The notes beneath the pieces are model-generated. The model was not told the origin of the DNA. It saw only the letters and a program-made list of their open reading frames with translations, and made no database searches. Positions 1 to 21,316 of a stretch of 64,000 nt of DNA are shown here, piece by piece (position 1 is the stretch's first letter; each line of letters begins with the position of its first letter). The DNA is from Synergistales bacterium (GTDB lineage: Bacteria > Synergistota > Synergistia > Synergistales > JAFGMB01), in NCBI GenBank assembly GCA_963666205.1, contig OY762654.1, positions 1,056,001-1,120,000 of the forward strand, written 5' to 3'. The position numbers were made by a program, and so were the translations under genes.

Positions 1-1
1 G

Positions 2-2044
2 GAAATAACCGGTCCAACCATAGACGGTTCCATATTCACCCCCGACAACCAGGGTCCCGGCCAGATCGAGTTCCTGGACATGACAGGTTCCCAGGTACAG
101 GACGCAACAGGACAGGTCCAGGCACCGGGCCAGCAGATGGGCGTTGATGACAGTAACAAAGACTACGTCTCGGGCGCCCTTCCGTCCGTTATCACCGATA
201 AGCTTCCCCGTTTCGGATATAACTTCTTCAGCAGACCCTCTACCGCCTTTGCACCCGTAAGGAATGTTCCGGTGGGACCCGATTACGTGGTCGGACCCGG
301 TGACACCGTCCGCATCGACATCTGGGGGCTTGAAGAGGGCCATTACACCGTACCCGTTGACCGAAACGGTAACCTTTCCCTTCCCAGGGCAGGCGTTGTA
401 GGTGTTACAGGCCTCACCTTCGACCAGGTGAAAATGGCCGTCACAAGTGCCTATTCCCGCTACTACAGCAATTTCCAGATAAATATAACCATGGGTCAGC
501 TGAGGACCATAACCGTCTACGTTGTTGGCCAGACCAACCGGCCAGGCGCCTATACCCTTTCATCCATGTCCACAGTGATCAATGCCCTTATCGCATCTGG
601 AGGTCCCAGCTTTTCCGGAAGCCTGAGGAACATCCAGGTCAAACGCAACGAACGGATAGTGTCCCGGTTCGACGCCTATGAACTTCTCCTCCAGGGCAGC
701 AAGAAAAAAGACATCCGCCTCATGGACGGCGACGTGCTCTTCATCCCCACCGTGGGTCCCCTGGTGGGCATTACCGGCGACATAAAGAACCCTGCCTACT
801 ACGAACTCAATGGGCAGGCAAGGATCTCCGATCTTGTGGAGATGGCGGGAGGGTTCACCAACCGCTACTTCAAGGGCCGGGTCCAGGTTGACCGCACCAT
901 GGGCAACGAATACCGCACATCCTTCGAGAACGACCTCGCAGGGCTCAAGGAGAATCCTGCAAAGAACATACCCCTGGAGAACGGCGACCTCGTCAAGATC
1001 TACTCCGTTTCCGTCCAGGAATCCAAGATATACCTTTCCGGTGCCGTCGCCCGTCCGGGCCAGTACTCCATCCAGCTGGGCAGAACCAGGGTCGGCGATG
1101 TACTTCGCCGCGCAGGAGGCCTTCTCTACATGGCATCCAATGAGGGCGAGCTCACCCGGGTAAAGGTCACACAGGCCGGCCCCGAAACAAGCCGTTTCCG
1201 CTTCGACATATCAAAGGCCATGGCCGGGGATCCCCAGAGCAACATGATCCTCGATGTCAACGACTACATAACCATCCGCACCGTACCCGACTGGACCCTC
1301 TACCGTACCGTAAGGGTACAGGGAGAGGTGAAGTATCCCGGCGTATACACCATCCAGAAGGGCGAAAGGCTCACAGACCTCATCGAGCTTGCTGGAGGAT
1401 ACACGGATGAGTCTTTCCTTCCCGGTGCGACCTTCACTCGTGCCAGCGTACAGCGCAAGCAGCAGCAAAGGATCGACGAAATGATCGACCGCCTGGAGAA
1501 ACAGCTTTACGGCGCATCCGTTGAAGGTACAGCAACAGCCCTCACAGAAGGGGATGCCCGCATGACCCAGATGGAGACCCAGCAGCGCCAGCGATTCCTC
1601 GACAGGCTCAGGGAAACAAAGGGAACGGGCCGCATAGTGGTGAAACTGCCCGAGAACCCCAGGATGCTCAAGGGAACACCCTATGATATAGAACTCGACC
1701 AGGGAGATACCCTGGTTATTCCTAAAAGGCCCCAGACCGTACAGGTGGTGGGTTCCGTCTATAACCCCATGGCCTTCGTGTACCGTCCCGACCAGCCCTT
1801 CACATACTACGTGAAGCAGGCCGGCGGATATTCATACAATGCCGATACAAAGAGGATCTACATCATCAAGGCCGATGGAACGGCAACGAGGTCCTTTGTG
1901 AACAAGAAACCTGTGACCATCGAAGATGGAGACAGCGTGATCGTGCCGGAGAAGATCGATGTCAAGGGCAAGCTGAGGGATACCAGGGACATCGTGGACA
2001 TCGTGTACAAGGTCGCCGTCGGCGCCGCCGTGTTACTCGACTAA
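2..2044 (+). CDS. Polysaccharide export protein with multiple SLBB domains (Wza/KpsD-like), 5' end outside window
   Basis: Poly_export motif (DYVVGPGDTVRI) plus repeated SLBB units (V.V.G.V..PG.Y); frame is open from base 2 to ATG 80, so the true start lies upstream. Confidence 0.9.
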   Translation, partial: EITGPTIDGSIFTPDNQGPGQIEFLDMTGSQVQDATGQVQAPGQQMGVDDSNKDYVSGALPSVITDKLPRFGYNFFSRPSTAFAPVRNVPVGPDYVVGPGDTVRIDIWGLEEGHYTVPVDRNGNLSLPRAGVVGVTGLTFDQVKMAVTSAYSRYYSNFQINITMGQLRTITVYVVGQTNRPGAYTLSSMSTVINALIASGGPSFSGSLRNIQVKRNERIVSRFDAYELLLQGSKKKDIRLMDGDVLFIPTVGPLVGITGDIKNPAYYELNGQARISDLVEMAGGFTNRYFKGRVQVDRTMGNEYRTSFENDLAGLKENPAKNIPLENGDLVKIYSVSVQESKIYLSGAVARPGQYSIQLGRTRVGDVLRRAGGLLYMASNEGELTRVKVTQAGPETSRFRFDISKAMAGDPQSNMILDVNDYITIRTVPDWTLYRTVRVQGEVKYPGVYTIQKGERLTDLIELAGGYTDESFLPGATFTRASVQRKQQQRIDEMIDRLEKQLYGASVEGTATALTEGDARMTQMETQQRQRFLDRLRETKGTGRIVVKLPENPRMLKGTPYDIELDQGDTLVIPKRPQTVQVVGSVYNPMAFVYRPDQPFTYYVKQAGGYSYNADTKRIYIIKADGTATRSFVNKKPVTIEDGDSVIVPEKIDVKGKLRDTRDIVDIVYKVAVGAAVLLD

Positions 2045-2060
2045 AACCAAGAGCTGTTTT

Positions 2061-2094
2061 ACCGCAGAGGTCGCAGAGAGCGCAGAGGAAACCG
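2061..2094 (+). repeat. Type-A tandem repeat ACCGCAGAG-GTCGCAGAG-AGCGCAGAG-GAAACCG
   Basis: Exact reverse complement at 2416-2449; one-mismatch reverse complement at 3140-3173. Confidence 0.95.
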
Positions 2095-2362
2095 AAAGGC
2101 AGGCATAAAAATTTCGCTGTGTAGGTTTTTATTAATCTCCTGTTTTATACATGCATGACTTGATCCTACTAAGATAAAGGTTGATGTACTTTTGTGCCAT
2201 GGGCATAAAGAAAATCATCAATTCTAAGAGCAAAACATGTAGTTACCTCAGAGGACGCATCGGAAAATTATAAAGAATGCAATGTTGTTTACTCTTTTGA
2301 CCGTTTATTATTCTAGAAGGTTTTGGCGGATTTCATGTAGACAGGAAGTTCTAGGGGGCTAA

Positions 2363-2451
2363 TCGTGAAAAATCTAGTCTGATTTTTCGCAGTAATACAG
2401 ATTTTACAGGTTTAACGGTTTCCTCTGCGCTCTCTGCGACCTCTGCGGTTA
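2363..2451 (-). repeat. 89-bp direct repeat copy 1 (palindrome B + type-A tandem)
   Basis: 88/89 identical to 3087-3175. Confidence 0.95.
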
Positions 2452-2498
2452 GCTAAGGGGTTTAGGTTTCACGGTCGAGAAGGGGTTTTATTCAATTT

Positions 2499-2876
2499 AT
2501 GGAAATTAATGAAATTAGCAAAACAATTATCGACAGTGCTTTCCAAGTTCACAAAGCATTAGGACCAGGTCTCCTCGAAAGTGCATATGAAGCCTGCCTC
2601 TGCTACGAACTCAAGAAAAGAGGATTTACAGTAGAATCCCAGAAAGTTCTCCCGATAATTTACGATGGACAACAAATTGATGTTGGTTATCGCCTGGATC
2701 TTCTTGTACAAGATCAGGTCATAGTAGAACTCAAATCTGTTGAACATATAAATGAGGTACATAAAGCACAGATACTCTCGTATCTCAAACTTGGTAATAA
2801 GAAACTCGGACTACTTATCAATTTCAACGTAGCCAAAATCAAGGACGGGATAACCCGTATCGTCAACGGTTTGTAG
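2499..2876 (+). CDS. GxxExxY family protein (PD-(D/E)XK nuclease-like fold)
   Basis: 125 aa with GPGLLESAYE, YRLDLLV, IVELK and GLLINFN motifs typical of the family. Confidence 0.92.
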   Translation: MEINEISKTIIDSAFQVHKALGPGLLESAYEACLCYELKKRGFTVESQKVLPIIYDGQQIDVGYRLDLLVQDQVIVELKSVEHINEVHKAQILSYLKLGNKKLGLLINFNVAKIKDGITRIVNGL

Positions 2877-3086
2877 GTTTTTTCGTCTTATAATATCAAG
2901 GTTTTGATTTACAAAGAAAATTGTTAATTAGGTTTTATCTAGTTATGCATATTTGAGGGTTTAGTCGGTCAAAATGGGTTGATCATTTTGACCAGTAGAG
3001 ATTTTTATACAAAAAAGATGTTTTTAGGTTTTCTCTGCGCTCTCTGCGGTTAGACAGGATTTAGACTTTAGGGTTGCCGGTTTTAT

Positions 3087-3175
3087 TCGTGAAAAATCTA
3101 GTCTGATTTTTCGCAGTAATACAGATTTTACAGGTTTAACGGTTCCCTCTGCGCTCTCTGCGACCTCTGCGGTTA
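3087..3175 (-). repeat. 89-bp direct repeat copy 2
   Basis: 88/89 identical to 2363-2451; a shorter type-A copy lies at about 3031-3052 and a palindrome variant at 2965-2995. Confidence 0.95.
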
Positions 3176-3212
3176 AACAGTATTTGATTTTAATAGATTT
3201 TGAGGGGTAAAC

Positions 3213-4442
3213 ATGACACCAGAAGAACAACTCGCACAACAAAACAACCAGCAATATTACTACGAAGACGACGAGATCGACATCCTCGATCTGCTCATTG
3301 TCCTTGCCAAACACAAAAAACTCATCCTTGGCCTCACTACCCTATTTGCGGTTCTTTCCATCGCCTATGCCCTCCTGGCCACACCCATCTACCGGGCAAC
3401 CACAAAGATACTGCCCCCCATGGCTGGCAAACAGAGCATGGCCATGAGCATGATCGCCCAGGCAGGCGTACCCGGCTTTGCCGCCGATGCCCTTGGCATC
3501 AAGACCCCCGGAGACCTTGTGGTGGGTATCGTCAAAAGCCGTACAATCATGGATAAACTGATAAATAAATTCGACCTTCAGGCCAGGTATGAATCCGAAA
3601 ACATGGATCTCACCAGAGAGACTCTTTCCACCTCCACTTCTGCCGCAACCGATGCAAAAACGGGCCTTGTTTCCATTTCCATTGAAGACAAAGACCCTGC
3701 CTTTGCTGCCCAGCTTGCCAACAGCTACGTGGAGGAACTGCAGAACTTCATCCAGCAATTAGCCATAAGCGATGCCGCCCAGCAGCGTCTGTTCCTGGAA
3801 GAACAGGTAAAGGAAACCCAGGTAAACCTTTTGAAGGCCGAAAATGAACTTACCGAATACCAGAAAAAAACGGGGATCCTCAATGCCGGCCAGCAGGCAT
3901 CGTCCCTTATGTCTGCCATCGCCACCTTCCGGGCCCGCATATCCGCCAAGGAAGTGGAACTCCAGGCAGCAGAGACCTTTGCCTCTCCAAACAACCCCAG
4001 GATCCAGAAACTCAGGGCCGAGGTCAAGGGCCTTAAAGAACAGATCCAGAAACTGGAAGCCCAGGCAACGGAGGGCAGCGAAGAATCCTTCAACCTAAGC
4101 GAACTTCCAGATGCAGGCATGGAATACCTCCGTAAGATGAGGGACCAGAAGTTCTACGAGACCTTATACGGCATGCTCCTGAGCCAGTTCGAGCAGGCAA
4201 AGATGGCCGAAGCCCAGGAACCTGCCATCATACAGGTTATAGATGAGGCAGTGCCTCCACAGCTCAAGGCAAAACCAAAACGGAAACAGGTTGTGATCCT
4301 TGCCACGGTTCTCGGATTTTTCCTGTCCATATTTATGAGTTTTGTGATGGAATTTATTGAGAATGCAACAACGGATAACGAACGCAATGAAAAATTAAAA
4401 CTGTTAAAAAAACATTTGAGTTTAAGAAAACAGCAGAACTAA
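3213..4442 (+). CDS. Polysaccharide chain-length determinant / co-polymerase (Wzz/GumC-like, no kinase domain)
   Basis: DEIDILDL N-terminus, two TM helices, coiled coil, VIDEAVPP..K.KPKR motif. Confidence 0.88.
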   Translation: MTPEEQLAQQNNQQYYYEDDEIDILDLLIVLAKHKKLILGLTTLFAVLSIAYALLATPIYRATTKILPPMAGKQSMAMSMIAQAGVPGFAADALGIKTPGDLVVGIVKSRTIMDKLINKFDLQARYESENMDLTRETLSTSTSAATDAKTGLVSISIEDKDPAFAAQLANSYVEELQNFIQQLAISDAAQQRLFLEEQVKETQVNLLKAENELTEYQKKTGILNAGQQASSLMSAIATFRARISAKEVELQAAETFASPNNPRIQKLRAEVKGLKEQIQKLEAQATEGSEESFNLSELPDAGMEYLRKMRDQKFYETLYGMLLSQFEQAKMAEAQEPAIIQVIDEAVPPQLKAKPKRKQVVILATVLGFFLSIFMSFVMEFIENATTDNERNEKLKLLKKHLSLRKQQN

Positions 4443-4547
4443 AGTCTGAGAGTAAAAAGTTTTGAATATCATTTCCAGAAGAATCCAAGGATAAGAGCCA
4501 TATTTCACTCGATTCAACGAATACTATCGAGAAAGGAACGTGTACTC

Positions 4548-6011
4548 ATGAATGGCTCAACATATGCAATAAAGAAGGAAGAACATGTTTTTTCGGGGTC
4601 AAGGTATGGCTATCTTCAGCAATGGATGATGCCCTTCACTTTATTGTCTTCAGATATTATGGCTTTCTTCTTCTCATGGGCAATAGCGATAGTTGTTGCG
4701 ACCCTTATGGGTAAAAACATTGCTTTAGCAGACTATCTGAATTTCCTTTATTTCATACCACTATTTCTCTTTGCCTTTTTGCTAAGCGGACTCTATTCCA
4801 GAACAAGTACAAACCCTGTAGAAGAGATCAGAAAATTATCATTGATAACGTCCTTTTCATTCTTTTTTTTGATCACAGGCATATTTATCATGCATCGGGA
4901 AAGCCTCTTCTTTTACTCAAGGTTTACAATTTCCCTGGCAGGGCTCTCATCTCTGGCAATTATTCCTCTATTGCGAAGCTTTACAAGACATCTTTGCGCC
5001 CATAACGCATGGTGGGGGACTCCAGTCCTGATCCTGGGTGCTGGAAAAACTGGACAGATGATCGCCAGAAAAATAAATGAAACACCATCTTTAGGTTTGA
5101 AATTGATTACTATTCTGGATGACGATCATGATAAACAGCTTGATACACTGTATTTCCCTGCATCAGGTCCCATTTCTGATATGCGAAATATAGCTATAAA
5201 CAACAGGCTCTGTAAAGTGCTTATTTGCATGCCTGGAGTGAGTAAAGAAAAAGTCATCTCCATCATGGACGAATGCACCAGGTATTTTAACCATGTGACA
5301 GTGATTCCGGACCTTTTTGGTATGTCTTCTCTCTGGGTAAACGCAAAAGATATTGGAGGGGTATTAGCCCTTGATATACAGAATTCTTCTCTCTCCACCA
5401 GTGCTCAGTTTATTAAGAGGACTGTGGATGTATTTTTGGTACTAACGGGTGGATTTTTGATTCTCCCTCTAATTTTAATTGTCTCTTTATTTGTAAAACT
5501 GGACTCACCTGGTCGTATCTTTTATGGCAATAAACGAGTTGGAAAGAATGGAAAAAACTTTCTTTGCTGGAAATTTCGAAGTATGAAACAAAATGCAGAT
5601 GAATTACTCAATTCCTATTTAGCTAAAGATCCCACGCTTCAAAAAGAATGGGATAAAACACAGAAACTTCAGAATGACCCTCGCATAACAAAGATCGGGA
5701 AATCGCTAAGGAAATGGAGCATTGATGAACTACCCCAACTCTGGAATGTTTTAAAAGGAGAAATGAGTCTGGTTGGACCCAGGCCATGTTTTGAAGAACA
5801 GTTGAAGATGTACGGGAATAATCAACATCTTTATACCAGCGTTAAGCCAGGTATCACAGGGTATTGGCAGATATCTGGAAGAAACTCTCTTAACTTTGAA
5901 GATCGAGTCAGACTTGAGAGATATTACGTAAGCAACTGGTCAATATGGCTTGATATATATATCCTCGCCAAAACGATAATGGTTGTAATTAAAGGCGAAG
6001 GGGCTTATTAA
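4548..6011 (+). CDS. wbaP: Undecaprenyl-phosphate hexose-1-phosphate transferase (WbaP family)
   Basis: N-terminal TMs, GAGKTG domain, KFRSM, DPRIT, DELPQLWNVLKGEMSLVGPRP, KPGITGYWQISGR, C-terminal GAY. Confidence 0.92.
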   Translation: MNGSTYAIKKEEHVFSGSRYGYLQQWMMPFTLLSSDIMAFFFSWAIAIVVATLMGKNIALADYLNFLYFIPLFLFAFLLSGLYSRTSTNPVEEIRKLSLITSFSFFFLITGIFIMHRESLFFYSRFTISLAGLSSLAIIPLLRSFTRHLCAHNAWWGTPVLILGAGKTGQMIARKINETPSLGLKLITILDDDHDKQLDTLYFPASGPISDMRNIAINNRLCKVLICMPGVSKEKVISIMDECTRYFNHVTVIPDLFGMSSLWVNAKDIGGVLALDIQNSSLSTSAQFIKRTVDVFLVLTGGFLILPLILIVSLFVKLDSPGRIFYGNKRVGKNGKNFLCWKFRSMKQNADELLNSYLAKDPTLQKEWDKTQKLQNDPRITKIGKSLRKWSIDELPQLWNVLKGEMSLVGPRPCFEEQLKMYGNNQHLYTSVKPGITGYWQISGRNSLNFEDRVRLERYYVSNWSIWLDIYILAKTIMVVIKGEGAY

Positions 6012-6052
6012 GACGTCGCCCTCAATTAATTAAGGCTACATGGTGAACTTAC

Positions 6053-6610
6053 TTGAATAAAAAAATTATAGATTTAAGTCAAGCTGGATATGGGAAATTT
6101 AAAAGGACGAGATCCAAATGGATTGAGGCTTTATGGATTATAGTGGAATTTTGCTTTGTAACAAATCCCATACAAGTTTCAAGTAAATTACGTATTCTGC
6201 TTATCAGGATGTTTGGAGGAAAAATCGATAAAAATGTAATCATGAGGCCCAGAGTTCGGATCAAGTTTCCTTGGAATCTGGAAATCGGAAATAACTGCTG
6301 GATTGGTGAAGGTGTTTGGATACATAACCAGGATAAGGTCTACATTGGCAATAATACAGTTATTTCACAAGAGGCATTTATAACAACTGGTTCCCATGAT
6401 CATTACAAAACCATGGATTTGATCACAAAACCAGTCAGGATTGGTTCTGGTGTCTGGATAACCTCCAGAGCAATGATATTGCTAGGTGTTTCAATAGCTG
6501 ATAATGCAATAATTACACCCAACAGTGTTGTACATCGAAACATAGAAAAAGCCGGAATTTATTGCGGAAATCCTGCTGTTTTGATAAAAGAGAGGAAGAT
6601 CACAGATTAA
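6053..6610 (+). CDS. WcaF-like acetyltransferase (hexapeptide repeat)
   Basis: IKFPWNLEIGNNCWIGEGV, SQEAFITTGSHD, GNPA motifs. Confidence 0.85.
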   Translation: MNKKIIDLSQAGYGKFKRTRSKWIEALWIIVEFCFVTNPIQVSSKLRILLIRMFGGKIDKNVIMRPRVRIKFPWNLEIGNNCWIGEGVWIHNQDKVYIGNNTVISQEAFITTGSHDHYKTMDLITKPVRIGSGVWITSRAMILLGVSIADNAIITPNSVVHRNIEKAGIYCGNPAVLIKERKITD

Positions 6611-7853
6611 TCTTCTTGTAATAAGTCTTAATTATGCACCGGAACTTGTTGGTGTTGGAAAGTATTCTTCGGAAATGTGTTCCTGGTTTGTATCGAGGGG
6701 GCATTCAGTAGATGTCATAGCCGGATTACCACATTACCCCGAGTGGGAAATACATCAAGAATACAAGAATAAAGGATTCTACACAGAAGCGATTGATGGA
6801 GTAAATATTTTAAGAGTACCCCATTTTGTTCCTCCAGCAGATAGAGTTAATGCTAAAACCAGAATTAAACTTGAAACAAGCTTTCATTTAAAATCATTGA
6901 GATATGCGTTGCCAATTTTATTCAAAAAGAAGAAATACGATGCTGTTATAGCAGTCTGCCCTCCAATGCAGTCAGGTTTGTTCCCAATGATATACAAGAT
7001 CTTTAGAAATGTCCCATGGATATTTCATGTACAGGACCTCCAGGTAGATGCCGCCCTAAATCTTGGTATTTTAAAAAATCACACTATCATTAGAAAAATG
7101 CTATTTGGGATTGAAAAAATGCTTTTTAAAAATGCTACAAAGGTTTCAACGATCACTGATGCGATGAAACAGAAGATCATTAATAAAGGTATTGATCCAA
7201 ACAAAATGGTTCTTTTCCCAAATTGGGCTGATCTGGATTTTATTAAACCTATGGATAGAAATAATCCCTTAAGAAAAGAATTTGGCTATACAGAAGACGA
7301 TACTGTAATCATGTATGCCGGTAATATGGGTGAAAAACAGGGACTCGAAATAATTATTGATGCAGCATGTCATTTTACACAAGATTCAAACATCCAGTTT
7401 GCCATGGTTGGCGACGGGACTGCAAAAAAAAGGTTAACTAAATTAACTCGAGACAAAGGGCTTACCAACCTTCATTTTTTCCCATTGCAACCTCTTCAGA
7501 AATTACCGAATCTCCTAGCCATGGCAGATATTCATCTGGTTATCCAAAAAAGGGAGGCTTGTGACTTAGTTATGCCATCGAAATTAACTAATATTTTGGC
7601 TGCTGGAAGACCTATTATAGCAACTGCAAAATATGGAAGCCACTTATATCAAGTTATTGTTGAAAACCAATGTGGTTTGGTTTTAAAGTCACACAGGACA
7701 GTTGAACTAATTGAAGGCATCAAAAATCTCACCAATCAAGCCCTGATGGTAGAACAAATGGGACAAAAATCTCGATTTTATGCCATAAACTATTTTGATA
7801 AAGAAAAGATCCTCCAAGAAATGGTATATAACATAAATCGGATAATGACCTAA
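6606..7853 (+). CDS. WcaI-like GT4 glycosyltransferase, probable ATT start
   Basis: In-frame extension INLLVISLNYAPELVGVGKY matches the WcaI N-terminus; HVQDLQVDA, YAGNMGEKQGLE and MPSKLTNILA motifs; ORF track starts at 6675. Confidence 0.85.
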   Translation: MNLLVISLNYAPELVGVGKYSSEMCSWFVSRGHSVDVIAGLPHYPEWEIHQEYKNKGFYTEAIDGVNILRVPHFVPPADRVNAKTRIKLETSFHLKSLRYALPILFKKKKYDAVIAVCPPMQSGLFPMIYKIFRNVPWIFHVQDLQVDAALNLGILKNHTIIRKMLFGIEKMLFKNATKVSTITDAMKQKIINKGIDPNKMVLFPNWADLDFIKPMDRNNPLRKEFGYTEDDTVIMYAGNMGEKQGLEIIIDAACHFTQDSNIQFAMVGDGTAKKRLTKLTRDKGLTNLHFFPLQPLQKLPNLLAMADIHLVIQKREACDLVMPSKLTNILAAGRPIIATAKYGSHLYQVIVENQCGLVLKSHRTVELIEGIKNLTNQALMVEQMGQKSRFYAINYFDKEKILQEMVYNINRIMT

Positions 7854-8006
7854 TTGTGATGGATACATAAATATAGATAAAAATGCAAATTATCCCTGCT
7901 AGGAATTGGTAACTTATTTCCCTAAAAGAATATGAATTGACCTTAGGTTTTACTATTTGTAAACACAAGATTTCTCGTAGTATTAAATTATTAGTATGAG
8001 AAAGGA

Positions 8007-9125
8007 ATGGAAATGAAAGAAGAAGACGGCCGCGTAAAGATCGTGTTATTATCACCTCTCCCACCTCCATCCGGAGGTATTGCTACTTGGACAAGCTCTA
8101 TCTTAAGAAGCAGATTGACCAAGCACTATAAATATATTCTTGTTAATACCAGGATAACAAGTCAAAGAGGGACGAGTGAATCATGTTGGCAATTTCCTTT
8201 TAGTGAATTAGCTAGAAATGGAAAGATAATCTTTAATTTTCTTTATGCTATTTTTTATCATTCACCTAAGCTTGTCCATATAAACAACGCTTCATGGAGT
8301 TTTGGTGGTATTTTCAGGGATTTACTCTTAGCTACCATATCAATAATTTTTAGGAAAAAAGTAATCATTCATTTTCATGATTGTTTAGTGTATCGACCAA
8401 AGTCTTTGTTCTATAGATTTTTATTAACTCAGTTAATTAAAACTTCAACTCTGATTATCACCTTAGACAAAAAATCAGAGAAATTTATAGAGAATCTTTC
8501 GATAAAACATAAGAATTATAGTTTCTCTCTATGTAACATTCCAAATTTTATTGACAATAACAAAATATTACTAGATTCAGAAAATATGCATTCAATAAAG
8601 AATGTCAAAGTTTTATTTGTTGGAAGTATAACAAAAAACAAAGGATGTCGCGACATCCTTGAAGTTGCAAGATCATTACCAGAGATACAGTTTACGCTTA
8701 TTGGTAAGGTCCAGTCAGATATGATCGAATTGGTCAGAAAAATAGCTGAGCCCAACATTAAGTTTATCTCTGAAATATCGAATCGAGAAGTATTGAAAGA
8801 AATGCAAAAAGCCAATATTTTTTTGTTACCTTCATATAAAGAAGGATTCCCATTAGTTATTCTTGAAGCAATGGCAAACAGATTACCTGTAATAGCAACA
8901 AATGTAGGAGCTATACCTGAAGTTATCATTCAAAACAAGGGTGGATATGTGCTTAAACCAGGTGATGTTCAATCGATGAAAGAATTGTTAACAAAACTTA
9001 GATTAAACCTAGATTTAAGGTTGGAAATGGGTGAGTTTAATTTTGACTTTGTTTCTAAGAAGTTTCTTCTGTCAAACATTGAAAAATACCTTTACGAAGC
9101 ATATCAGAAAGTCCTCTCGAAATAA
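8007..9125 (+). CDS. GT4 family glycosyltransferase
   Basis: SPLPPPSGGIATW N-terminus; EGFPLVILEAMA (EX7E) motif. Confidence 0.88.
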   Translation: MEMKEEDGRVKIVLLSPLPPPSGGIATWTSSILRSRLTKHYKYILVNTRITSQRGTSESCWQFPFSELARNGKIIFNFLYAIFYHSPKLVHINNASWSFGGIFRDLLLATISIIFRKKVIIHFHDCLVYRPKSLFYRFLLTQLIKTSTLIITLDKKSEKFIENLSIKHKNYSFSLCNIPNFIDNNKILLDSENMHSIKNVKVLFVGSITKNKGCRDILEVARSLPEIQFTLIGKVQSDMIELVRKIAEPNIKFISEISNREVLKEMQKANIFLLPSYKEGFPLVILEAMANRLPVIATNVGAIPEVIIQNKGGYVLKPGDVQSMKELLTKLRLNLDLRLEMGEFNFDFVSKKFLLSNIEKYLYEAYQKVLSK

Positions 9126-9231
9126 AAGCTAAGTACAGAGAAAATAGGTTTTCAAGAACCTTTTGGATTATAACATTGATTGATTGATTGATTTCTTGAA
9201 CAGTACCAAGAGATCGGATTAATAAAATTGG

Positions 9232-10359
9232 ATGGTGAAAGATTTGCGAAAAGTCCTCTTTTATACTGGGAGTCTGGCATCAGGGGGGGCAGAGAGACAG
9301 TTGATATACACTGCGCTATCCGCTCAATTAAATGGTTATAAGGTGCTTATAGTAATCGATCATGACCACTGCGACTACACCAAAATGTTGGAAGGTACAA
9401 ATATTGAAATCTATTGCACTCATTCGAACAAGTACAATCCAATAAAACGTTATATTAAATTAAATGGAATAATACAAGAATTTAAGCCTGAAATTTTCCA
9501 TTCATTCCTAGCAAACAAAAATTTATGGGGTATGTTATTAGCATATTTGAACAAAGTTCCGATTAAAATTGCCTCGATAAGAAACACTAATTCTTCAGCT
9601 TTTAAGGGAATTCAATTCTACAACAAATGGGCAGACAAGATAATATGCAATTCAAGGTTTGCATATGAAATTGCTCATTCCACATACGGAGTCCCAAGAA
9701 AAAAATTGGAAGTCATCTATAATTGCATCGATATGGATCGCTTCAACAATACAATGATCTCTCTAGATATAAAACATAATTTGGGACTTTTGGACAACAC
9801 CAAACTTGGTATAACTGTAGCTCGTTTTTCCAAACAGAAAAATCATCTGGGTTTTGTCAAAGCTTTTAGTAATTTTGTTGGAGAAAATTCAAGTGTTTGT
9901 CTGCATCATTTGTTTGTAGGCAATCAAAAAGATATAAAAATAGTGCAGCCGGTAAGAGCAACCGTTGATACCTTGAATTTATCTGAAAACATAACCTTTT
10001 GGGATACCAGAGAAGATATTCCAGAAATAATAAAAGCCTGCGATTTTCTTATACTCCCTTCTCTATATGAAGGTTTTCCAAATGTTGTTATGGAAGCGAT
10101 GGCTTCAAAAACATTTGTAATTGCAACAGCAGTAGGGGGTATACCAGAACTGGTTAAGCATATGGAAAATGGAATCTTAATTCCTAGCCCACGTGCAAAA
10201 GATATTGCAAAATCAATTGAATTATATCTCTCTCTTTCTGCTGAAAAAAAAGAACGAATAATTAATCAAGCATATATCGATATACAAAGCTACGGTATTG
10301 AAAACATGTTTAGACAAACTGAAGAGCTCTACACAGTATTTAATTTCTCCATAGGATAG
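9232..10359 (+). CDS. GT4 family glycosyltransferase
   Basis: GGAERQL N-terminus; EGFPNVVMEAMA motif. Confidence 0.88.
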   Translation: MVKDLRKVLFYTGSLASGGAERQLIYTALSAQLNGYKVLIVIDHDHCDYTKMLEGTNIEIYCTHSNKYNPIKRYIKLNGIIQEFKPEIFHSFLANKNLWGMLLAYLNKVPIKIASIRNTNSSAFKGIQFYNKWADKIICNSRFAYEIAHSTYGVPRKKLEVIYNCIDMDRFNNTMISLDIKHNLGLLDNTKLGITVARFSKQKNHLGFVKAFSNFVGENSSVCLHHLFVGNQKDIKIVQPVRATVDTLNLSENITFWDTREDIPEIIKACDFLILPSLYEGFPNVVMEAMASKTFVIATAVGGIPELVKHMENGILIPSPRAKDIAKSIELYLSLSAEKKERIINQAYIDIQSYGIENMFRQTEELYTVFNFSIG

Positions 10360-10418
10360 CGCTGTCATAATCTCCCCCAAAAGGAACTTACCTAATCAAT
10401 AGCAACATTAGGAGGATT

Positions 10419-11339
10419 TTGCTCATGCCCAGAACCTTCATAAAATCACCAAAGAATCATAAAAGTCTAATCGCTATGCTTTTCAGCTATATAAAACCTT
10501 CTATTTGGCATATTTGCGAAATGCTACCAGATAGACTTTTTATTTCGCTTATATTTAGGAAGTCAATGGGTTATTTTCCGAACTTAAATCAACCCAAAAC
10601 ATATAACGAAAAGATTCAATGGTTAAAGTTAAATGACCGGAAACCTGAATATCATGAGATGGTTGATAAATACGAGGTTAGGAAGTTTGTTTCAGAAAGA
10701 ATAGGAAGCAAATATTTAATTGACTTGTATGGGTTATATAACTCTTCTGAAGAAATAGATTTTTGCCAGTTACCCAACCAATTCGTTATGAAATCGACAC
10801 ATGGCTCTCATTCAGTCTACATTTGCAAGAATAAAACTGAAGAGGATTACAACAAGATAAGAAATTTGAGCAAAGATTGGTTTAATCAAGACATTTATAC
10901 AAGATATAGAGAATGGGCCTACAAAGGTCTTAAAAAAAGAATAATTGCGGAAAAGTTATTAGTCGATTCAGAAGGGAAAACCCCAGATGATTATAAAATA
11001 ATGTGTTTTAATGGAAAACCAATGGTAATACAACATCATCAGAATCGTTTTGGGAACTATACCTTGGATTATTATGATTGTAATTGGAAACGATTAAGTG
11101 TTTATAGACCATATGCCCCAAATTCTTCGAACCCCAAACCTAAACCAATCAATCTAGAGAATATGGTGAACATAGCTAAATCTCTATCCAAAGGAATCAA
11201 GTTCGTTAGGGTAGATCTTTACAATTTAGGAGGAATAATTAAGTTTGGGGAAATGACTTTTTATCCAACAAGCGGTCTGACCCCATTAGAACCACCAGAA
11301 TGGGATATCTTATGGGGACAGTTAATTGATATTAGTTAA
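10419..11339 (+). CDS. TupA-like ATP-grasp amidoligase
   Basis: PKTYNEKIQWLKL, VDKYEVR, KSTHGS, DYKIMCFNG, FVRVDLY, FGEMTFYP. Confidence 0.85.
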   Translation: MLMPRTFIKSPKNHKSLIAMLFSYIKPSIWHICEMLPDRLFISLIFRKSMGYFPNLNQPKTYNEKIQWLKLNDRKPEYHEMVDKYEVRKFVSERIGSKYLIDLYGLYNSSEEIDFCQLPNQFVMKSTHGSHSVYICKNKTEEDYNKIRNLSKDWFNQDIYTRYREWAYKGLKKRIIAEKLLVDSEGKTPDDYKIMCFNGKPMVIQHHQNRFGNYTLDYYDCNWKRLSVYRPYAPNSSNPKPKPINLENMVNIAKSLSKGIKFVRVDLYNLGGIIKFGEMTFYPTSGLTPLEPPEWDILWGQLIDIS

Positions 11340-11371
11340 TGGTCCCTTCTCAAAATTCAGAAGGGACCATT
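11338..11371 (+). terminator. Hairpin after first ATP-grasp gene
   Basis: AATGGTCCCTTCT-N8-AGAAGGGACCATT perfect stem. Confidence 0.55.
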
Positions 11372-11470
11372 GTTGATGCCATACTTCTTGTATATGGAAG
11401 CGGGAGAGTTGCTTTATGCTTCAGCAATAATAGCCACCTTTTGATCTTGATTATAGTTTCGTAACTGTAG
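11372..11470 (-). pseudogene. Possible IS3-family OrfA (HTH) fragment
   Basis: Translates as RNYNQDQKVAIIAEA*SNSPASIYKKYGIN, resembling a transposase OrfA N-terminus with a stop. Confidence 0.35.
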
Positions 11471-11663
11471 CCTTGTTGGCCTTATTATAATTTTTCGAAT
11501 GATTTAGTACAACTCTTCTGGTGATCAGGAAGTATCAGTAATTATCAACTTCGAAATACATTTTTTCTTGAAAGCATAAGGATTCACAAAGATTTGACAT
11601 TCGAGAATTAGCTAATCAGCACTTCCTCATGTATAGGAAGCTTACCGAGAGGAGTAAGACGAA

Positions 11664-12995
11664 ATGGTAATATCCCTTTTCCAGAATTGTATAGTTTTAT
11701 TATGGTTTTCAATTGGTATATACCAGGTATACACAGGAAACAAGAACTTTTTACTTATTGGAATGCTAATAAGTTTAATTATCCCTAGATTTGTGTTAAA
11801 CGCAAATATAAAGATACCACCGCATTATTTCGTTTTTTTGCTCCTGGCAATCTGGACATTTTTCAATTTCATAATAAAAAAACAAAAAACCTCATTAGAG
11901 ATAGGATTTTTCATATTACCAATAACATATTTTTTCTTATTATGCCTTGTTTTTACAGGTTCATTAAATGGAATTTTATCAGTGGAACAAAGAGAATTTT
12001 TTGGAGCATCTCTATTTGGCCTGTTCATCTTTGTAGTAGAATTATTGTTATTTTCCTTATTTATATCCGAGTTTAGGCATCAGTATTATTGTCTGGTTAA
12101 ATCAATAGATATTATTTTTTTTACTTTGGTACTAGCCAATTTAGGCACTGCTATTTTTCAACTGTTTTTTGGCCAAATTAATATTTTCCAAAACCTTTAC
12201 AGCAGTCAGACTAATAATGTATTAGGTATAATGAGTAGAATGGGTGGTTTCCACAGAGCTACAGGCCTATTTCCAAGTCCCGTTAACCTAGGCGTTTTTA
12301 CGCTGCTAAGTTTTGCATATTTTATATATAGAAAGCAGTTTTATATCTCCTTATTATCTTGCTCTTTAGGTATATTGGCAGCTAGCAAAACCGCCATCAT
12401 TGGAATTCCTTGTCTCTCAATCCTTGTCTTGGTATTTATTTCCATAAAAAAAGTAACTACATTCACCACAAAAAAAAGCTCGATTAGATTTGCTATCTTT
12501 CTCAGTTTTACTTGCCCCATTTTATTAGTCTTAATTTATTTTTTGGGCCAAAGCAAGGGTGTGTATATAAATTATTACTTGAAATATTTAATAAAACCTT
12601 TCGATGCACTACATAGTCGATACACTGGTGACATCACTTTTCTAAAAATAACATATGAATCAATTAAACAACATTGGCTAATAGGATCAGGCTTTACATT
12701 TCTCCCGAGAGAAAATCTTGGTGACTCCATGTATATTTTTTGGTTGAAAACAACTGGTATTCTTGGTATGTGCATATTATTTACAGGCATTCTCACTCTG
12801 TTACACCATTTTCTCAACGGGGAAACCGGGATATTGATTTTTATTCTAGCTTTCCTGTTTAGTGGACTTGCACTTACTAATACAGATTTTTTTAGTAATT
12901 CAATTATGTCAGCCCTACTCGTAACAAGCAGTTCTAATAAACATAAAAACCTGCTTACAAACATTCATGTTGTTACGACATCTGATCAAAATTAG
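11664..12995 (+). CDS. Putative Wzy polysaccharide polymerase
   Basis: Many TM segments, RATGLFPSPVNLG motif, AT-rich, inside a wzx-containing cluster. Confidence 0.65.
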   Translation: MVISLFQNCIVLLWFSIGIYQVYTGNKNFLLIGMLISLIIPRFVLNANIKIPPHYFVFLLLAIWTFFNFIIKKQKTSLEIGFFILPITYFFLLCLVFTGSLNGILSVEQREFFGASLFGLFIFVVELLLFSLFISEFRHQYYCLVKSIDIIFFTLVLANLGTAIFQLFFGQINIFQNLYSSQTNNVLGIMSRMGGFHRATGLFPSPVNLGVFTLLSFAYFIYRKQFYISLLSCSLGILAASKTAIIGIPCLSILVLVFISIKKVTTFTTKKSSIRFAIFLSFTCPILLVLIYFLGQSKGVYINYYLKYLIKPFDALHSRYTGDITFLKITYESIKQHWLIGSGFTFLPRENLGDSMYIFWLKTTGILGMCILFTGILTLLHHFLNGETGILIFILAFLFSGLALTNTDFFSNSIMSALLVTSSSNKHKNLLTNIHVVTTSDQN

Positions 12996-13109
12996 ACATG
13001 CTTTAAACAATACCAAATATATTTAATTATTTATTAATATTTTTTCATAGATTTATCTGAACACAATATCTTATTGAACAAGTGACAAACAGGGGATATC
13101 TATTTCTAA

Positions 13110-14118
13110 TGACCTGCTCCCAGAAAAGTGGTCCAGTTGAAATGCGAGAAAGTTGCTAAAATTGGGCCCCTCGAGAAGGAATATTCATGAAGAAGAGATT
13201 TTGGAGAGGAATAGATCGTCTCCATATTGAAAGAACACAAAACAGGAATACCCGGTAAAGAGCTGGCAAGATACGGATTCAGTGAAAGACGGACGTGCGG
13301 GCTACTGAAAATACACTGAACGACATTGAGATACAACAGCAGGAAAGACAGGCAGGATGGACAGGAAAGGACAAGGTTTAAAGAACTCCCCTAGTATGGA
13401 AACGCGATCACTACATAAGGCTTCATACCCTGATTTACAGGTAAGGTTATGAGATAAACCATAAGAAGGGTGACCGGCTGTACTGTGAGGAAGATCTCAG
13501 GTTCAGGAAGAGAAGGAAGAAACGGTTGGCAAGACCACGATTATCAGAACCACTCGTTCTGGATAGAGCCAACCAGAGATGGTCGTTGGATTTTGTTTCC
13601 CATAACACAGCCATAGGGAGCAGGATCAGGATATTGACAGTAATAGATACATTTACGAGAAAATATCTTGCACTGGAAATGGAAACATACATAAGGAGAA
13701 GCCGTGTTTCCACGGTATTGGACCGGATAAGTATGAAGAGAGGTTATCCTGAAGAGATCCTTACCGACAAGGGACCAGAATTCACAAGTAAAGTAATGGA
13801 TGCCTGGGCTTATATCAGAGGAATAACCCACAGGTTTATAGAACCTGAGAAACCGTCACAGAACGGATATAGAGAGTTTCAACGGTAAGTTACGTTATGA
13901 ATGTCTAAACGAACAATGGTTTTTTAACCTTAAAGATACCATGAATATCATTGGCGAATGGAAGAAGACCTATAACGCGGAAAGACGTGACAACTTATTT
14001 GATAATATGACACCGTCGGAATTTGCTAAGAAAATAACGGTAAAAGAAGAAGCCCTCTGTGCTTAAAGATGTCAGGAAACTCGCATAGAAACTGGACCTA
14101 ATGCAGGAGGACAGGTCA
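13110..14118 (+). mobile_element. Degraded IS3-family element (IS407-like)
   Basis: TG...CA ends with imperfect IRs (TGACCTGCTCCCAGAAAAGTGGTCCAGTT vs reverse complement TGACCTGTCCTCCTGCATTAGGTCCAGTT); orfA start MKKRF at 13187; integrase-core remnant. Confidence 0.85.
13187..14066 (+). pseudogene. IS3 transposase orfA/orfB pseudogene
   Basis: WSLDFV, LTVIDTFTR, TDKGPEF, FIEPEKPSQNG motifs, with multiple frameshifts and stops. Confidence 0.85.
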
Positions 14119-14347
14119 GGTCATCAAGAGGAGAATCTAAAATGAGAAGATTCTCTATTATTAGTCGATTTTTTATTCCTTCTGAATTCGCTCTGAAATA
14201 TGAAGGGGGAAAAGAAGTCACTGTTACATAGCAAGAATAAGAAACTTGTATCTATACTTACTTAAACATAAAAAGCAGATAATAGTGGCATGTCTCTTGC
14301 ATTATCTAATATCTAAGAAATAATATTTATCCTACAAATCGAAAGAG

Positions 14348-15613
14348 TTGACAAATTTAATGAAAAAGCTATCAAGTTTTTTGAAGATACGAAAAACTTT
14401 TATTTTATATGCATTACTTAAACTATTAATAATGGTTCTAGGCTTAATTACAAATATCTTCATTGTTAGGAAATTAAGCGTTAATGATTATGGAGTATTT
14501 TCAGTTGCACTTATGTTAATTGGCTTAATAACAACATTTGGATTTAGCTGGAGTTCGTCCTCGATACTGTATTATGGGAGCAAAGAAAAAACTAGGTATG
14601 GAAATATAAATAAGACATTTTGGACTAGGAACATAATTATATTTTTCAGCTTAATCATAATTACTACTATATTTATCTTATATTGGGAACAAATTAATAA
14701 TTACATAGGAATGAGAGTTTCTTTTGTAATACTAATTTGGCTATATGTAAGTGTCACAGAAGATTACTTAAGTCAATATTTTCTAGCTGTTAAAAGACAA
14801 TTATTGTCCAGCATGCTTTCGGTTACAGCAAAGATTATTTATATTGTTTTGATAATATTTATCCCATTTGATTTAGTTACACTTATCAAACTTAACATTA
14901 TCAGTCATGCTACAGTATTATTGTATATTTTTGGAATAAACAGAAAAGATGTAGGACGTTTTGATTTCGATAAAGAGTGGTTTAAAGAAGTGCTAAACTT
15001 TTCTTTGTGGCAATTATTTGGTTTTTCTGGGCTTTACCTGATAAATTTTGGTGATACGGCAGTTATAAAGTATTTTATGACAACTGAAGACGTAGGTATA
15101 TATAACGCTGCATATAAATTATTCATCGCAGTTGCTGGATTTGCATTTGTTATTTCTAGTTATTATGCATCCAACGTGTCAGAGTACTTTGTTAAAAATG
15201 AGCATGAAAAAATAAAGAACTTTTATTATCGAGAAAGGTTTTATATTTTTGCCCTAAGTACAATATTACATATTTTAGTCATGATTTTTGCTAAGCCTAT
15301 TATTTCAACTTTATACGGTGAAAGATATATTCAATCTGTGCCAATATTTAACATACTTATGGTCGGTAGTATGGCAAGATACTTCTCAGTGTTTTACATG
15401 TTATATTTCAACACAAATGGGAAATATAGAATCCAACAAGGCATTAATATTCTAAGAGCACTATTGAATCTGGTTTTAGATGTCATATTTATTAATATAT
15501 TTGGACTTATTGGACCAGCTTTAGCTACTACAATAGCAATCATAATCTCATTTATTTTTTCAATGGCTTACTGCGAAAAACAAATAATTACAAGCTCTCA
15601 GGGAGGGGAATAG
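14348..15613 (+). CDS. wzx: Wzx-type oligosaccharide flippase
   Basis: About 12 TM, RKLSVNDYGVFS, VGIYNAAYKL, FGLIGPALAT motifs. Confidence 0.85.
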   Translation: MTNLMKKLSSFLKIRKTFILYALLKLLIMVLGLITNIFIVRKLSVNDYGVFSVALMLIGLITTFGFSWSSSSILYYGSKEKTRYGNINKTFWTRNIIIFFSLIIITTIFILYWEQINNYIGMRVSFVILIWLYVSVTEDYLSQYFLAVKRQLLSSMLSVTAKIIYIVLIIFIPFDLVTLIKLNIISHATVLLYIFGINRKDVGRFDFDKEWFKEVLNFSLWQLFGFSGLYLINFGDTAVIKYFMTTEDVGIYNAAYKLFIAVAGFAFVISSYYASNVSEYFVKNEHEKIKNFYYRERFYIFALSTILHILVMIFAKPIISTLYGERYIQSVPIFNILMVGSMARYFSVFYMLYFNTNGKYRIQQGINILRALLNLVLDVIFINIFGLIGPALATTIAIIISFIFSMAYCEKQIITSSQGGE

Positions 15614-16542
15614 TGAACACATCTTTAAGAGAATTGTTAAAGAATAGTGATTTGATAGTCAACCTATATGATTTCATACAAGAATTGTATTATAAACATT
15701 TCATCTCAGATGTTGGCTTAATTAAAAAAAGATTTAAAGAATCAGTCGGCAGGGAAGTAGAGCTTAACAATCCCATTAGATTTACAGACAAACAACAGTG
15801 GTTAAAGTTGAATTGGTATGATCCTTTAGCAGTAAAGTGCGCGGATAAGTATGCAGTAAGAGAATTTATAAAAGAAAGGATAGGGCAAAAATATTTAAAT
15901 GACCTGTACGGAATTTATGAATCAGTCAATGACATTGATATAGATAAATTACCTAATGCATTTGTTCTAAAGGGAACTCATGGTTCAGGTTTCAACATTA
16001 TCTGTAAAGATAAAACCCAAATGAATTGGCATGAAGAATTCAAAAAGATAAAAAGATGGCTTAAGAAAAATTATTATTGGCAAAACCGTGAATGGGTGTA
16101 CAAGAACATTAAACCTCGAATCGTCTGTGAGAAATATTTAACGGAGGAGAATTACTACAATAGCCTAACTGATTACAAAATATATTGTTTTAATGGAATA
16201 CCAAAATATTGTCAAGTAATTAGAGGACGAGGAGTTAATGAAACAATAGATTTTTATGATACTGAATGGGGTCATATGCCTTTTACAGGGTTAAGACCAT
16301 TGACTATGTCAGATAAAAACTACACAAAACCTAAAAAATATGAAAAGATGCTCGATCTAGCAAAAAGATTATCCGAAAACTTTCCATTTGTACGAGTAGA
16401 TTTTTATTATATTAAAGATAAGATTTATTTTGGAGAATTAACATTCTTCCCACTTAGTGGAATAGGGAGATTTGAACCACCAGAGTGGGATTTAATCGTT
16501 GGAAATCTGTTACAACTCCAAAAGCTCGATAAGTCGGGCTAG
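15613..16542 (+). CDS. Second TupA-like ATP-grasp amidoligase
   Basis: QWLKL, ADKYAVR, KGTHGSG, DYKIYCFNG, FVRVDFY, FGELTFFP. Confidence 0.85.
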   Translation: MNTSLRELLKNSDLIVNLYDFIQELYYKHFISDVGLIKKRFKESVGREVELNNPIRFTDKQQWLKLNWYDPLAVKCADKYAVREFIKERIGQKYLNDLYGIYESVNDIDIDKLPNAFVLKGTHGSGFNIICKDKTQMNWHEEFKKIKRWLKKNYYWQNREWVYKNIKPRIVCEKYLTEENYYNSLTDYKIYCFNGIPKYCQVIRGRGVNETIDFYDTEWGHMPFTGLRPLTMSDKNYTKPKKYEKMLDLAKRLSENFPFVRVDFYYIKDKIYFGELTFFPLSGIGRFEPPEWDLIVGNLLQLQKLDKSG

Positions 16543-16669
16543 TGTTTAAGATGTTAGCACAAATGGGTTCAGGCCTTGCATGAACAGTTTGACACAAGAA
16601 TTGGGGTCTACTATTGAAATCGTAGATAATTGTAGCCCCAGGTGATACCCCGGAAAAGGACTTAACTAC

Positions 16670-17533: not shown

Positions 17534-17554
17534 GTTTTACCTGGAGGATCCTTA

Positions 17555-17929: not shown

Positions 17930-17966
17930 GTCTTACTCTATATTTCGAAGAAGGTGTTCCTGCGAA

Positions 17967-20253: not shown

Positions 20254-20370
20254 ACAGCACCTTAATAAAATGGGGTCAGACCTTGATTTTAACCGTATGT
20301 ATTCAGTATTATGTAAATATTTTAGCCCTGCGAAAACCATGAAACCATAAAATCCAACCATCACCCTTTC

Positions 20371-21264: not shown

Positions 21265-21280
21265 GAGGGAGAACTACGAG

Positions 21281-21316
21281 AAAAAAAGAACCTGCTCCCA
21301 TCGGGGGGAGCAGGTT
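21281..21316 (-). terminator. Intrinsic terminator of the etf-oxidoreductase operon
   Basis: AACCTGCTCCC/GGGAGCAGGTT stem followed by a U-run on the minus strand. Confidence 0.75.

Follow-up and report, generated by a model that had tools for sequence, protein, structure and literature searches.

The window analysed here is a stretch of 64,000 nucleotides (nt) from a single-contig Acetomicrobium genome of 2.95 Mb and 44% GC (G000:C1:1056001-1120000), and the subject of this account is a small gene of the GxxExxY family near its left end, together with the short repeats that frame it. As the original prediction from the sequence had it, the gene stands alone between the stop codon of a wza-like polysaccharide export gene and the Shine-Dalgarno sequence of a wzz-like chain-length determinant gene, an assignment borne out by the open reading frame (ORF) and by profile and domain matches (Table 1). 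All three genes are read from the + strand; the TAA stop of the wza-like gene (2042-2044) lies inside the left arm of an inverted repeat and the right arm stops 5 nt 5' of the wzz Shine-Dalgarno sequence GAGGGG (3202-3207), the cassette filling the whole interval from stop codon to ribosome-binding site of a co-directional junction.

The product of 125 amino acids (aa) matches TIGR04256 (GxxExxY) over the full profile (positions 1-116 of 116; E 1.1e-46, 158 bits, cut-off 35) and PF13366 (PDDEXK_3; E 6.1e-45, 152.8 bits, cut-off 22), the latter being its sole Pfam match, and profile searches gave no match to a transposase family. The name-giving motif is present as G24-L-L-E27-S-A-Y30, as are the predicted catalytic residues D67, E77 and K79; these residues G24, E27, Y30, D67, E77 and K79 are among 16 that are invariant across 74 aligned sequences, and the window protein has them all. 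Its AlphaFold2 model is of high confidence (predicted local distance difference test, pLDDT, 95.0; predicted template-modelling score, pTM, 0.88) and found no Foldseek match at E 0.001 or below, the matches being weak ones, with template-modelling (TM) scores of ~0.5, to Cas4 SSO0001 (the best, E 3.3e-3), 3ijm, lambda exonuclease, Hjc and splicing endonucleases, with the I-Bth0305I catalytic domain among the more distant at rank 36. No sequence match was found in the PDB at E up to 1, and PADLOC and PHROGs returned weak similarity to the Cas4 core only (PADLOC E 0.0026); a reading as a defence system was rejected, this similarity being all that PADLOC gave. The protein is a member of the GxxExxY family with a restriction-endonuclease-like alpha/beta fold in its model and is a predicted nuclease, in keeping with the earlier description of a PD-(D/E)XK-like fold without established function; in a 2012 survey of PD-(D/E)XK proteins the function of PF13366 is entered as "Unknown", with multiple transfers (PMC3424549), and GxxExxY appears in a passage of PMC8934634 as an annotation remark only.

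The repeats had been described as imperfect inverted repeats of about 53 bp (2042-2094 and 3140-3192) starting at the TAA, a direct repeat of 89 bp (2363-2451 and 3087-3175) and a perfect inverted pair of 34 bp at 2061 and 2416. All are there, and two of them prove longer: the outer inverted repeat extends to 58 nt at 86% identity and takes in the wza stop codon, and the direct repeat extends to 92 nt (98%, period 724), the inverted pair (2061-2094 with 2416-2449) being as described. The core of each arm is a tandem of the heptamer CGCAGAG with a 9-nt period, and CGCAGAGNNCGCAGAG, with up to 1 mismatch, has 18 copies in the window against 0.00 expected from 100 dinucleotide shuffles. The 92-nt direct repeat is a module, composed of a stem-loop and an antisense arm, that stands on either side of the GxxExxY gene. 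The spacers GT and AG are identical among outer arms and direct repeats, the segment 2072-2188 recurs between genes at genome 1054316-1054431 with 87% identity, and the interior of the junction is a patchwork of modules present elsewhere in the surrounding exopolysaccharide (EPS) locus. Two public read runs hold the stretch as contigs that break at the repeats; three contig joints (2078/3116 on opposite strands, 2094/2423 and 2094/3147), with sides 27-33 nt within repeats, were flagged unreliable and carry no weight.

Table 1. Genes, arms and arrays in the window (positions of the window)
Feature	Positions	Strand	Remarks
wza-like polysaccharide export gene, 3' part	1-2044	+	Poly_export, SLBB, SLBB_2; start ~172 nt before window
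Left outer arm	2037-2094	+	3 x CGCAGAG at 2063-2087, TTTTACC just before; sense, "upstream-type"
Gene-less interior of the "empty bracket" 2061-2449	2095-2362	none	
Direct-repeat unit, copy 1	2360-2451	+	Stem-loop ~2365-2393 and antisense heptamer array 2416-2449
GxxExxY gene	2499-2876	+	125 aa, intact ORF; predicted PD-(D/E)XK fold; 16/16 family-invariant residues kept
Antisense heptamer array, two units	3023-3058	-	147 nt 3' of GxxExxY stop; array 3033-3048
Direct-repeat unit, copy 2	3084-3175	+	Stem-loop and antisense array; 724 nt after copy 1
Right outer arm	3140-3197	-	Array 3147-3171, antisense
wzz-like chain-length determinant gene	3213-4442	+	Wzz and GNVR domains
Gene-less solo arrays	20375-20473	+	One CACGGAG type, one CGCAGAG type
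Gene-less solo arrays	24704-24936	+	All + orientation
Gene-less solo arrays	26170-26434	+	All + orientation
Gene-less solo arrays	29232-29792	+	All + orientation
Gene-less solo arrays	37333-37475	+	All + orientation

Heptamer arrays adjoin GxxExxY genes across phyla

A search with an alignment of four Acetomicrobium proteins gave 421 confirmed GxxExxY loci, of which the best 80, Methanosarcinales archaea included, were kept. The analysis covered the 77 of these in which neither flank of the gene is shorter than 150 nt; they represent at least 17 phyla. A heptamer array with the consensus C-R-C-N-R-A-G lies within 120 nt of the gene in 71 of these 77 loci, and the pairing of gene and repeats is therefore not a local accident. 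Arrays number 13.9 per kb in the 120 nt next to the gene as against 0.42 per kb beyond 300 nt, and when the 150 nt before the ATG were compared with the 150 nt after the stop codon, the best inverted repeat between the two flanks scored above the 99th percentile of shuffles at 65 of 77 loci (median 19; shuffled flanks 7.5, flanks of different loci paired with each other 8). Enrichment of such repeats near GxxExxY genes in other genomes, which the original prediction had looked for, is thus found on both measures.

The arms consist of 2-4 heptamers with a period of 8-10 nt, the types including CACAGAG, CGCAGAG, CGCCAAG, CACGAAG, CGCTAAG, CACAAAG and others, and the downstream arm repeats the type of the upstream one in reverse complement; (A/T)ACC precedes the arms on the outer side, and where a cassette is canonical 1-12 nt lie between the upstream array and the ATG. 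A layout with a sense array upstream and an antisense array downstream is found at 43 of the 77 loci, while an upstream array is antisense at 12 and a downstream one is sense at 9; the pattern finds no array at 6, of which 2 carry CACGACG-like units that fall outside it. Among the 68 cassettes with two called neighbours 44 are co-directional with both (the other combinations number 11, 7 and 6), a count from which 9 cassettes without a called neighbour are left out and which depends on crude ORF calling. In-frame stops occur in 4 of the 77 genes. Judged from these comparisons, GxxExxY cassettes behave like a family of selfish units of ~0.5 kb that occupy junctions between co-directional genes and cross phyla, in bacteria and archaea alike. 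Two near-identical cassettes with identical upstream flanks (L025 and L026) come from bins assigned to Heliobacteriaceae and Blastocatellia, which would be either a very recent transfer or a binning error.

Comparison of the two arms of each cassette bears on what the arms are for. With heptamer columns defined on the upstream arm and mismatches scored against the independent downstream arm, the heptamers differ at 5.6% of columns (62/1099), most of this at position 4 (25%, 40/157, the other six positions being at 5% or less), and the spacers at 34% (146/427). A constraint for RNA pairing should give an excess of G-U-type over A-C-type mismatches on the transcribed strand, and the counts of 90 and 96 in 65 arm pairs show none. 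Heptamers that are kept while their spacers drift, without G-U bias, would fit an array of recognised sites and not an RNA stem.

Arms and gene are also inherited together. A protein tree (74 sequences, many forks unresolved) requires 10 changes at heptamer position 2, where 200 shuffles need 20.2 on average and never fewer than 15, and 6 at position 5, where the shuffles have a mean of 19.5 and a minimum of 12; for host phylum, with 17 phyla represented, the same tree requires 31. The arms thus move with the gene as a unit; the flanking motif co-varies with the protein tree as had been foreseen, a pattern that linkage alone also predicts.

Filled, empty and gene-less junctions

At one locus (L023) a cassette of 503 nt (1436-1938) lies between two cobalamin-pathway genes, and the orthologous junctions of related genomes are found in several states. 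The junction is filled in G032 and holds the same cassette, 95% identical, in G041; it is empty in G036, where the upstream stop overlaps the downstream start (ACATGACC); it is a 75-nt remnant with one solo arm in G037; and in G042 and G040 it holds a different GxxExxY cassette with other arms, only 41 nt of arm being alignable to L023. Since orthologous junctions are filled, empty, solo-arm or differently filled, the cassette is mobile. In the filled state of L023 the upstream reading frame continues into the arm, whose last heptamer, CGCTAAG, gives it the stop codon TAA, and the far end of the cassette provides GGAGG ahead of the downstream ATG. A second case of filled and empty sites is L059, where a cassette of ~590 nt corresponds to a 58-nt spacer in a relative.

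The betaproteobacterial host of L059 (G033) carries in addition an internally deleted copy (C4:78522-78779) in which the matches to L059 1402-1519 and 1815-1954 abut, and genome-wide it has 161 triple arrays to 2 GxxExxY genes, with many +/- pairs standing 100-195 nt apart. Another genome (G035) has 28 arrays with 3 intact GxxExxY genes and one fragment. Derivatives without a gene do exist therefore, with amplification across the whole genome in some hosts. Comparative genomics gives good support to the general idea of a nuclease gene that is the partner of its flanking repeats and has gene-less derivatives. The arrays of G033 are mostly of the CACAGAG type and the arms of its examined gene are CACGAAG. 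The suggestion that gene-less clusters are non-autonomous derivatives stands for G033 and, as worded, is not supported for the window, where the clusters look old and are mostly solo arms in a region syntenic with that of the sister species described below.

Arrays in the exopolysaccharide locus and in the sister species

Six gene-less intergenic clusters had been reported in the window; such clusters exist and their number is five (Table 1), or six only if the 29-kb group is split. The exact core pattern has 33 copies in the Acetomicrobium genome, all within genome 1,031,992-1,093,466, and with one mismatch allowed there are 44 matches, 5 of them outside that interval. A generalised array pattern (two C-R-C-N-R-A-G units 1-3 nt apart) finds 73 arrays, of which 61 lie within the 65-kb EPS locus at 1,030,000-1,095,000, as against 3 for the reversed pattern; the expected dispersal of the repeats throughout this genome is not what is seen. 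The arms of the EPS locus are of the types CGCAGAG (43 matches) and CACGGAG (17). The CACGGAG arms (17 of the 61 EPS-locus matches) have no cognate GxxExxY gene in this genome and usually stand in series with a CGCAGAG arm; they lie at genome 1051600-1055400 (L002 5600-9400) and at window 20375, 24820, 26170, 26410 and 29719.

When merged the arms of the EPS locus number 40, mostly solo and directly oriented rather than in doublets. They are polar in that nearly all are "-" to the left of the wza operon and all are "+" to the right of it (genome 1,031,992-1,093,475, or to ~37,475 of the window), the exceptions being one solo "+" arm at 1054316 and the "+" arms of both GxxExxY cassettes of the genome. 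The second GxxExxY gene (1051150-1051527, - strand) has 74% DNA and 78% protein identity to that of the window, and each of the two sits between a "+" and a "-" arm. Arm orientation in the EPS locus shows no correspondence with the strand of adjacent genes, and a link to replication was rejected, the GC-skew extremes being at ~0.06 and 1.70 Mb and the flip in orientation at 1.057 Mb. The centre of the EPS operon, 17 kb at window 4355-21329 (genome 1060355-1077329), has 36.8% GC against 44.5% for the genome, and the syntenic region of the sister species contains nothing homologous to it, features that mark it as a swapped serotype-type block; it is free of arrays except for a pair at its right end (~20.4 kb).

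Among 31 Synergistales genomes GxxExxY genes are found only in this genome (G000) and in its sister species Acetomicrobium hydrogeniformans (G001). Copies of the strict motif number 33 and 31 in these two, 3 in G002 and at most 2 in the other 28, and triple generalised arrays number 14 and 13, with 1 each in G002, G004 and G013 and 0 in 26. Repeat abundance thus goes with presence of the gene, as the original prediction required (14 and 13 triple arrays with the gene against 0 or 1 in the 29 genomes without it), though the two Acetomicrobium species are one lineage and the co-occurrence within Synergistales counts as one event.

The EPS region is syntenic with contig C3 of the sister species, where it is inverted, with conserved blocks ~85-94% identical and the central 17 kb non-homologous. 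The syntenic region has 30 arms with the same polarity pattern, and the arms therefore look older than the split between the two species. At the wza-wzz junction, 1124 nt long there and 1094 nt here, the sister species has the same "+" arm right after the wza stop and "-" arms before the same Shine-Dalgarno sequence, and it has no GxxExxY gene; the content common to both junctions is the outer arm, one inner arm with ~20 nt, and the Shine-Dalgarno region only. The frame is therefore common to both species and its contents, the gene included, are not. An empty wza-wzz junction in relatives, which had been proposed as a check, is found to the extent that the sister junction lacks the gene, but the arms stay and there is no clean empty site with which the junction of the window can be compared. 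Scans of metagenomes with Wzz and with the C-terminal half of Wza for further alleles of this junction gave nothing usable, the only match being 40% identical.

Between the two species the second cassette (1050948-1051756; L002 4948-5756) has, together with its arms, 98.3% identity in flanks of ~90%, which suggests that it was exchanged recently between them or is unusually constrained. An ORF block at 1044691-1046076 is likewise 98.1% identical and suggests recent exchange. The sister species has two cassettes, with CGCAGAG and CGCAAAG arms and proteins 62% identical, the second of which lies between a gpsA-like gene and a ferredoxin gene.

Comparison with known systems

The resemblance to the repetitive extragenic palindromic (REP) sequences and their associated tyrosine transposases (RAYTs), which in REPtrons stand together as REP doublets (REPINs) and transposase gene, was put forward as a precedent and holds as an analogy of layout: one small gene lies between inverted short repeats that are also found gene-less, and in some genomes, as in G033 with its 161 arrays and 2 genes, few genes are accompanied by many gene-less doublets. 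It does not hold for the enzyme, which is of PD-(D/E)XK type and not of the Y1 HUH fold of REPtron transposases, nor for the repeats, which are tandem heptamer arrays rather than single palindromes and which in the Acetomicrobium genome are confined to one locus and mostly solo rather than dispersed doublets. This genome has a separate Y1_Tnp gene with palindromes of its own, none of which is in the EPS locus. That gene (IS200-like, RAYT-type, 182 aa, genome 2458047-2458595) occupies the gpsA-ferredoxin junction (2457915-2458788; L113 2721-3594) orthologous to the one that holds the second cassette of the sister species, and is flanked by GGATGCGCT...AGCGCATC palindromes and accompanied by a one-unit relic of a CGCAAAG arm; with up to 3 mismatches the palindrome core has 10 matches in the genome, 4 of them beside the Y1_Tnp gene and 0 in the EPS locus.

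Intervening sequences (IVSs) of 23S rRNA, as in Coxiella burnetii with its S23p ORF (PMC4990558), share with the cassettes a length of ~0.4-0.5 kb, one small ORF, inverted ends and a position within a transcribed unit that is not destroyed. The window site differs in being an mRNA junction between wza and wzz rather than an rRNA helix, its ORF belongs to PF13366 and not PF05635, and the arm comparison of GxxExxY cassettes lacks the signature of RNA pairing. The Acetomicrobium genome has a single PF05635 gene of its own ("23S rRNA IVS protein", a four-helix bundle; 1514104-1514400, L099 1481-1848), which is likewise framed by 7-mers, in this case inverted ATTTTAG arrays at L099 1301-1331 with their complement at 2040-2070. 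Runs of the GATTTTA type also occur in the wza-wzz junctions of both Acetomicrobium species.

With insertion sequences bounded by terminal inverted repeats (TIRs) and with miniature inverted-repeat transposable elements (MITEs) the cassettes share inverted ends, filled and empty sites, internally deleted gene-less copies and solo ends, but they have no DDE, serine or HUH transposase, they total ~500 bp, and in the single comparison that offers a clean empty site (L023 against G036) no target-site duplication was seen. Free-standing homing endonuclease genes of the PD-(D/E)XK type are similar in being small nuclease genes with presence/absence polymorphism at fixed sites; the GxxExxY gene, with its predicted nuclease role, differs from them in having no intron or intein context and no known long asymmetric target, and in being framed by heptamer arrays. 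Some arms end in GTTAAAC or GTTAGAC, and a reading of them as integron attC sites was rejected by inspection and without an integrase search, a single arm not being self-complementary. No published description of the array-framed GxxExxY layout was found in literature searches (supplements being outside their scope), and the repeat system, put forward as undescribed, appears new in print.

Possible mechanism and alternative explanations

The mechanism that we consider most likely, with slightly better than an even chance of being correct, is recognition of the heptamer arrays at the DNA level followed by copying through recombination. The nuclease, probably as an oligomer, would recognise heptamers on DNA at both cassette ends, and its cuts would set off recombination between sites that bear arrays, so that the cassette is copied or exchanged, a movement that may be homing-like or TIR-like. 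On such a scheme the wza-wzz junction would already have been framed by arms when the gene and the 92-nt module were added, or were kept, in the lineage of G000, and the ~40 arms of the EPS locus would be old and mostly solo relics that change mainly by local recombination. A bolder proposal, which we make tentatively and rate somewhat short of even, is that GxxExxY cassettes form an unrecognised class of minimal autonomous mobile elements, each with its own nuclease recognising the arrays at its ends. Such elements could colonise operon junctions harmlessly, since their arms give a stop to the upstream gene and a ribosome-binding site to the downstream one (as at L023). Their remains would be solo arms and doublets without a gene, and these would explain part of the intergenic repeats that have no explanation so far, the mosaic of the EPS locus included.

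A number of observations weigh against this explanation. The frame in the window is non-canonical: types and orientations of the outer arms fit the cassettes with arrays within 120 nt, but on the upstream side 405 nt separate the properly oriented arm from the ATG, the closest arm there (2416-2449) is antisense and so in "downstream" orientation, the wrong one for its place, and the downstream antisense arms lie 147 and 264 nt past the stop codon. The local arrays look old and resident rather than recently spread, being confined to one locus and mostly solo and direct, with 30 counterparts in the sister species, whose wza-wzz junction is framed and gene-less. Neither the L023/G036 nor the L059 comparison of filled and empty sites revealed a target-site duplication or a clean end, and the different 7-mers that frame the PF05635 gene mean that such a frame may not depend on the nuclease. 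That the GxxExxY protein recognises the arrays is something we infer only from their constant neighbourhood; co-clustering on the protein tree, being predicted by linkage alone, is no proof of recognition, and a comparison of residues 8 and 15 with heptamer position 5, in which the raw tables were suggestive, came down to 5 independent changes, 2 of them on supported branches (p 0.5), which is too few. No activity of any GxxExxY protein was found on record in the literature searched, supplements lying outside that scope.

It would seem unlikely, although several of these observations would be accommodated by it, that the arrays are simply resident repeats of the EPS locus, recombining as a mosaic in the manner of bacterial interspersed mosaic elements (BIMEs) or BOX repeats, with the frame as a by-product of recombination and the gene as a passenger. 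The confinement of 61 of 73 arrays to 65 kb, the 30 arms of like polarity in the syntenic region, the sister wza-wzz junction with the same outer arms around other contents and no gene, the patchwork of modules found elsewhere in the locus, and the identical GT and AG spacers of outer arms and direct repeats, which point to recent copying or conversion, all speak for such a history. It does not account for a heptamer frame that adjoins 71 of 77 GxxExxY genes in many phyla, nor for the 0 or 1 arrays of the 29 Synergistales genomes that lack the gene, and the second cassette, at 98.3% in flanks of ~90%, suggests movement as a unit. A further alternative, that we have a non-mobile, self-regulated DNA-binding or defence-type module whose arrays are operators for its own or its neighbours' expression, its patchy distribution being due to ordinary horizontal transfer of operon segments, we regard as improbable. 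Heptamer-specific conservation fits protein binding sites, a canonical upstream array 1-12 nt before the ATG is where an operator could act, and there is the weak Cas4-core similarity (PADLOC E 0.0026), though PADLOC gave no match below E 0.001. Autoregulation, however, needs no mirror-image array downstream, G033 has 161 arrays for 2 genes, and filled, empty, solo-arm and replaced states at one junction, with a deleted copy besides, are hallmarks of an insertion element.

Long double-stranded RNA is cleaved by RNase III, and the cassette could be an RNA element like an ORF-bearing intervening sequence, its arms pairing into a long stem in a transcript that reads through from wza to wzz. A cut by RNase III in this stem would free or silence the small ORF and part the messages on its two sides, and the repeats would be kept for their pairing. 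A perfect stem of 34 bp is predicted, the RNA fold of 2036-2460 has -154 kcal/mol (z -8.9; 0 of 100 shuffles are as stable), no promoter-like or terminator-like site was found on the + strand between 1900 and 3300, 44 of 68 cassettes are co-directional with both neighbours, and the layout is like that of the 428-nt Coxiella IVS with its S23p ORF (PMC4990558). We nonetheless regard this explanation too as improbable, for G-U-type mismatches (90) are not above A-C-type (96) in the 65 arm pairs, the spacers are free to differ between arms (34% mismatch), and 6 of 7 heptamer positions are kept across phyla, which is more than a stem requires. Furthermore the solo arms of the EPS locus are not consistently oriented to the strand of neighbouring genes, and there is no Rfam match, neither a family for the window at the gathering threshold nor one for 24 kb of repeat-rich flanks at E up to 1.

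Were GxxExxY proteins to drive array-framed cassettes, a very common "hypothetical protein" would gain a testable role and one class of intergenic repeats an origin, and there would be a mobile element smaller than known insertion sequences and apparently using a different enzyme. It would also explain a polysaccharide locus full of shuffling repeats that could help to exchange gene blocks. The CGCAGAG arrays and the predicted D67/E77/K79 active site offer concrete material for assays.

The stem-loop module

The stem-loop of the direct repeat, CGTG(A/C)AAAA-loop-TTTT(T/G)CGCAG, has no Rfam match and is found in the window at 2365-2393 and 3089-3117, and outside it at L002 ~5610-5640, 7050-7080, 8750-8780 and 9300-9330. 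Its stem bases vary among the copies and yet stay complementary, and of the two strands the one with CTCTGCG alone forms a U-G pair, as would fit a single-stranded role, either as RNA or as single-stranded DNA.

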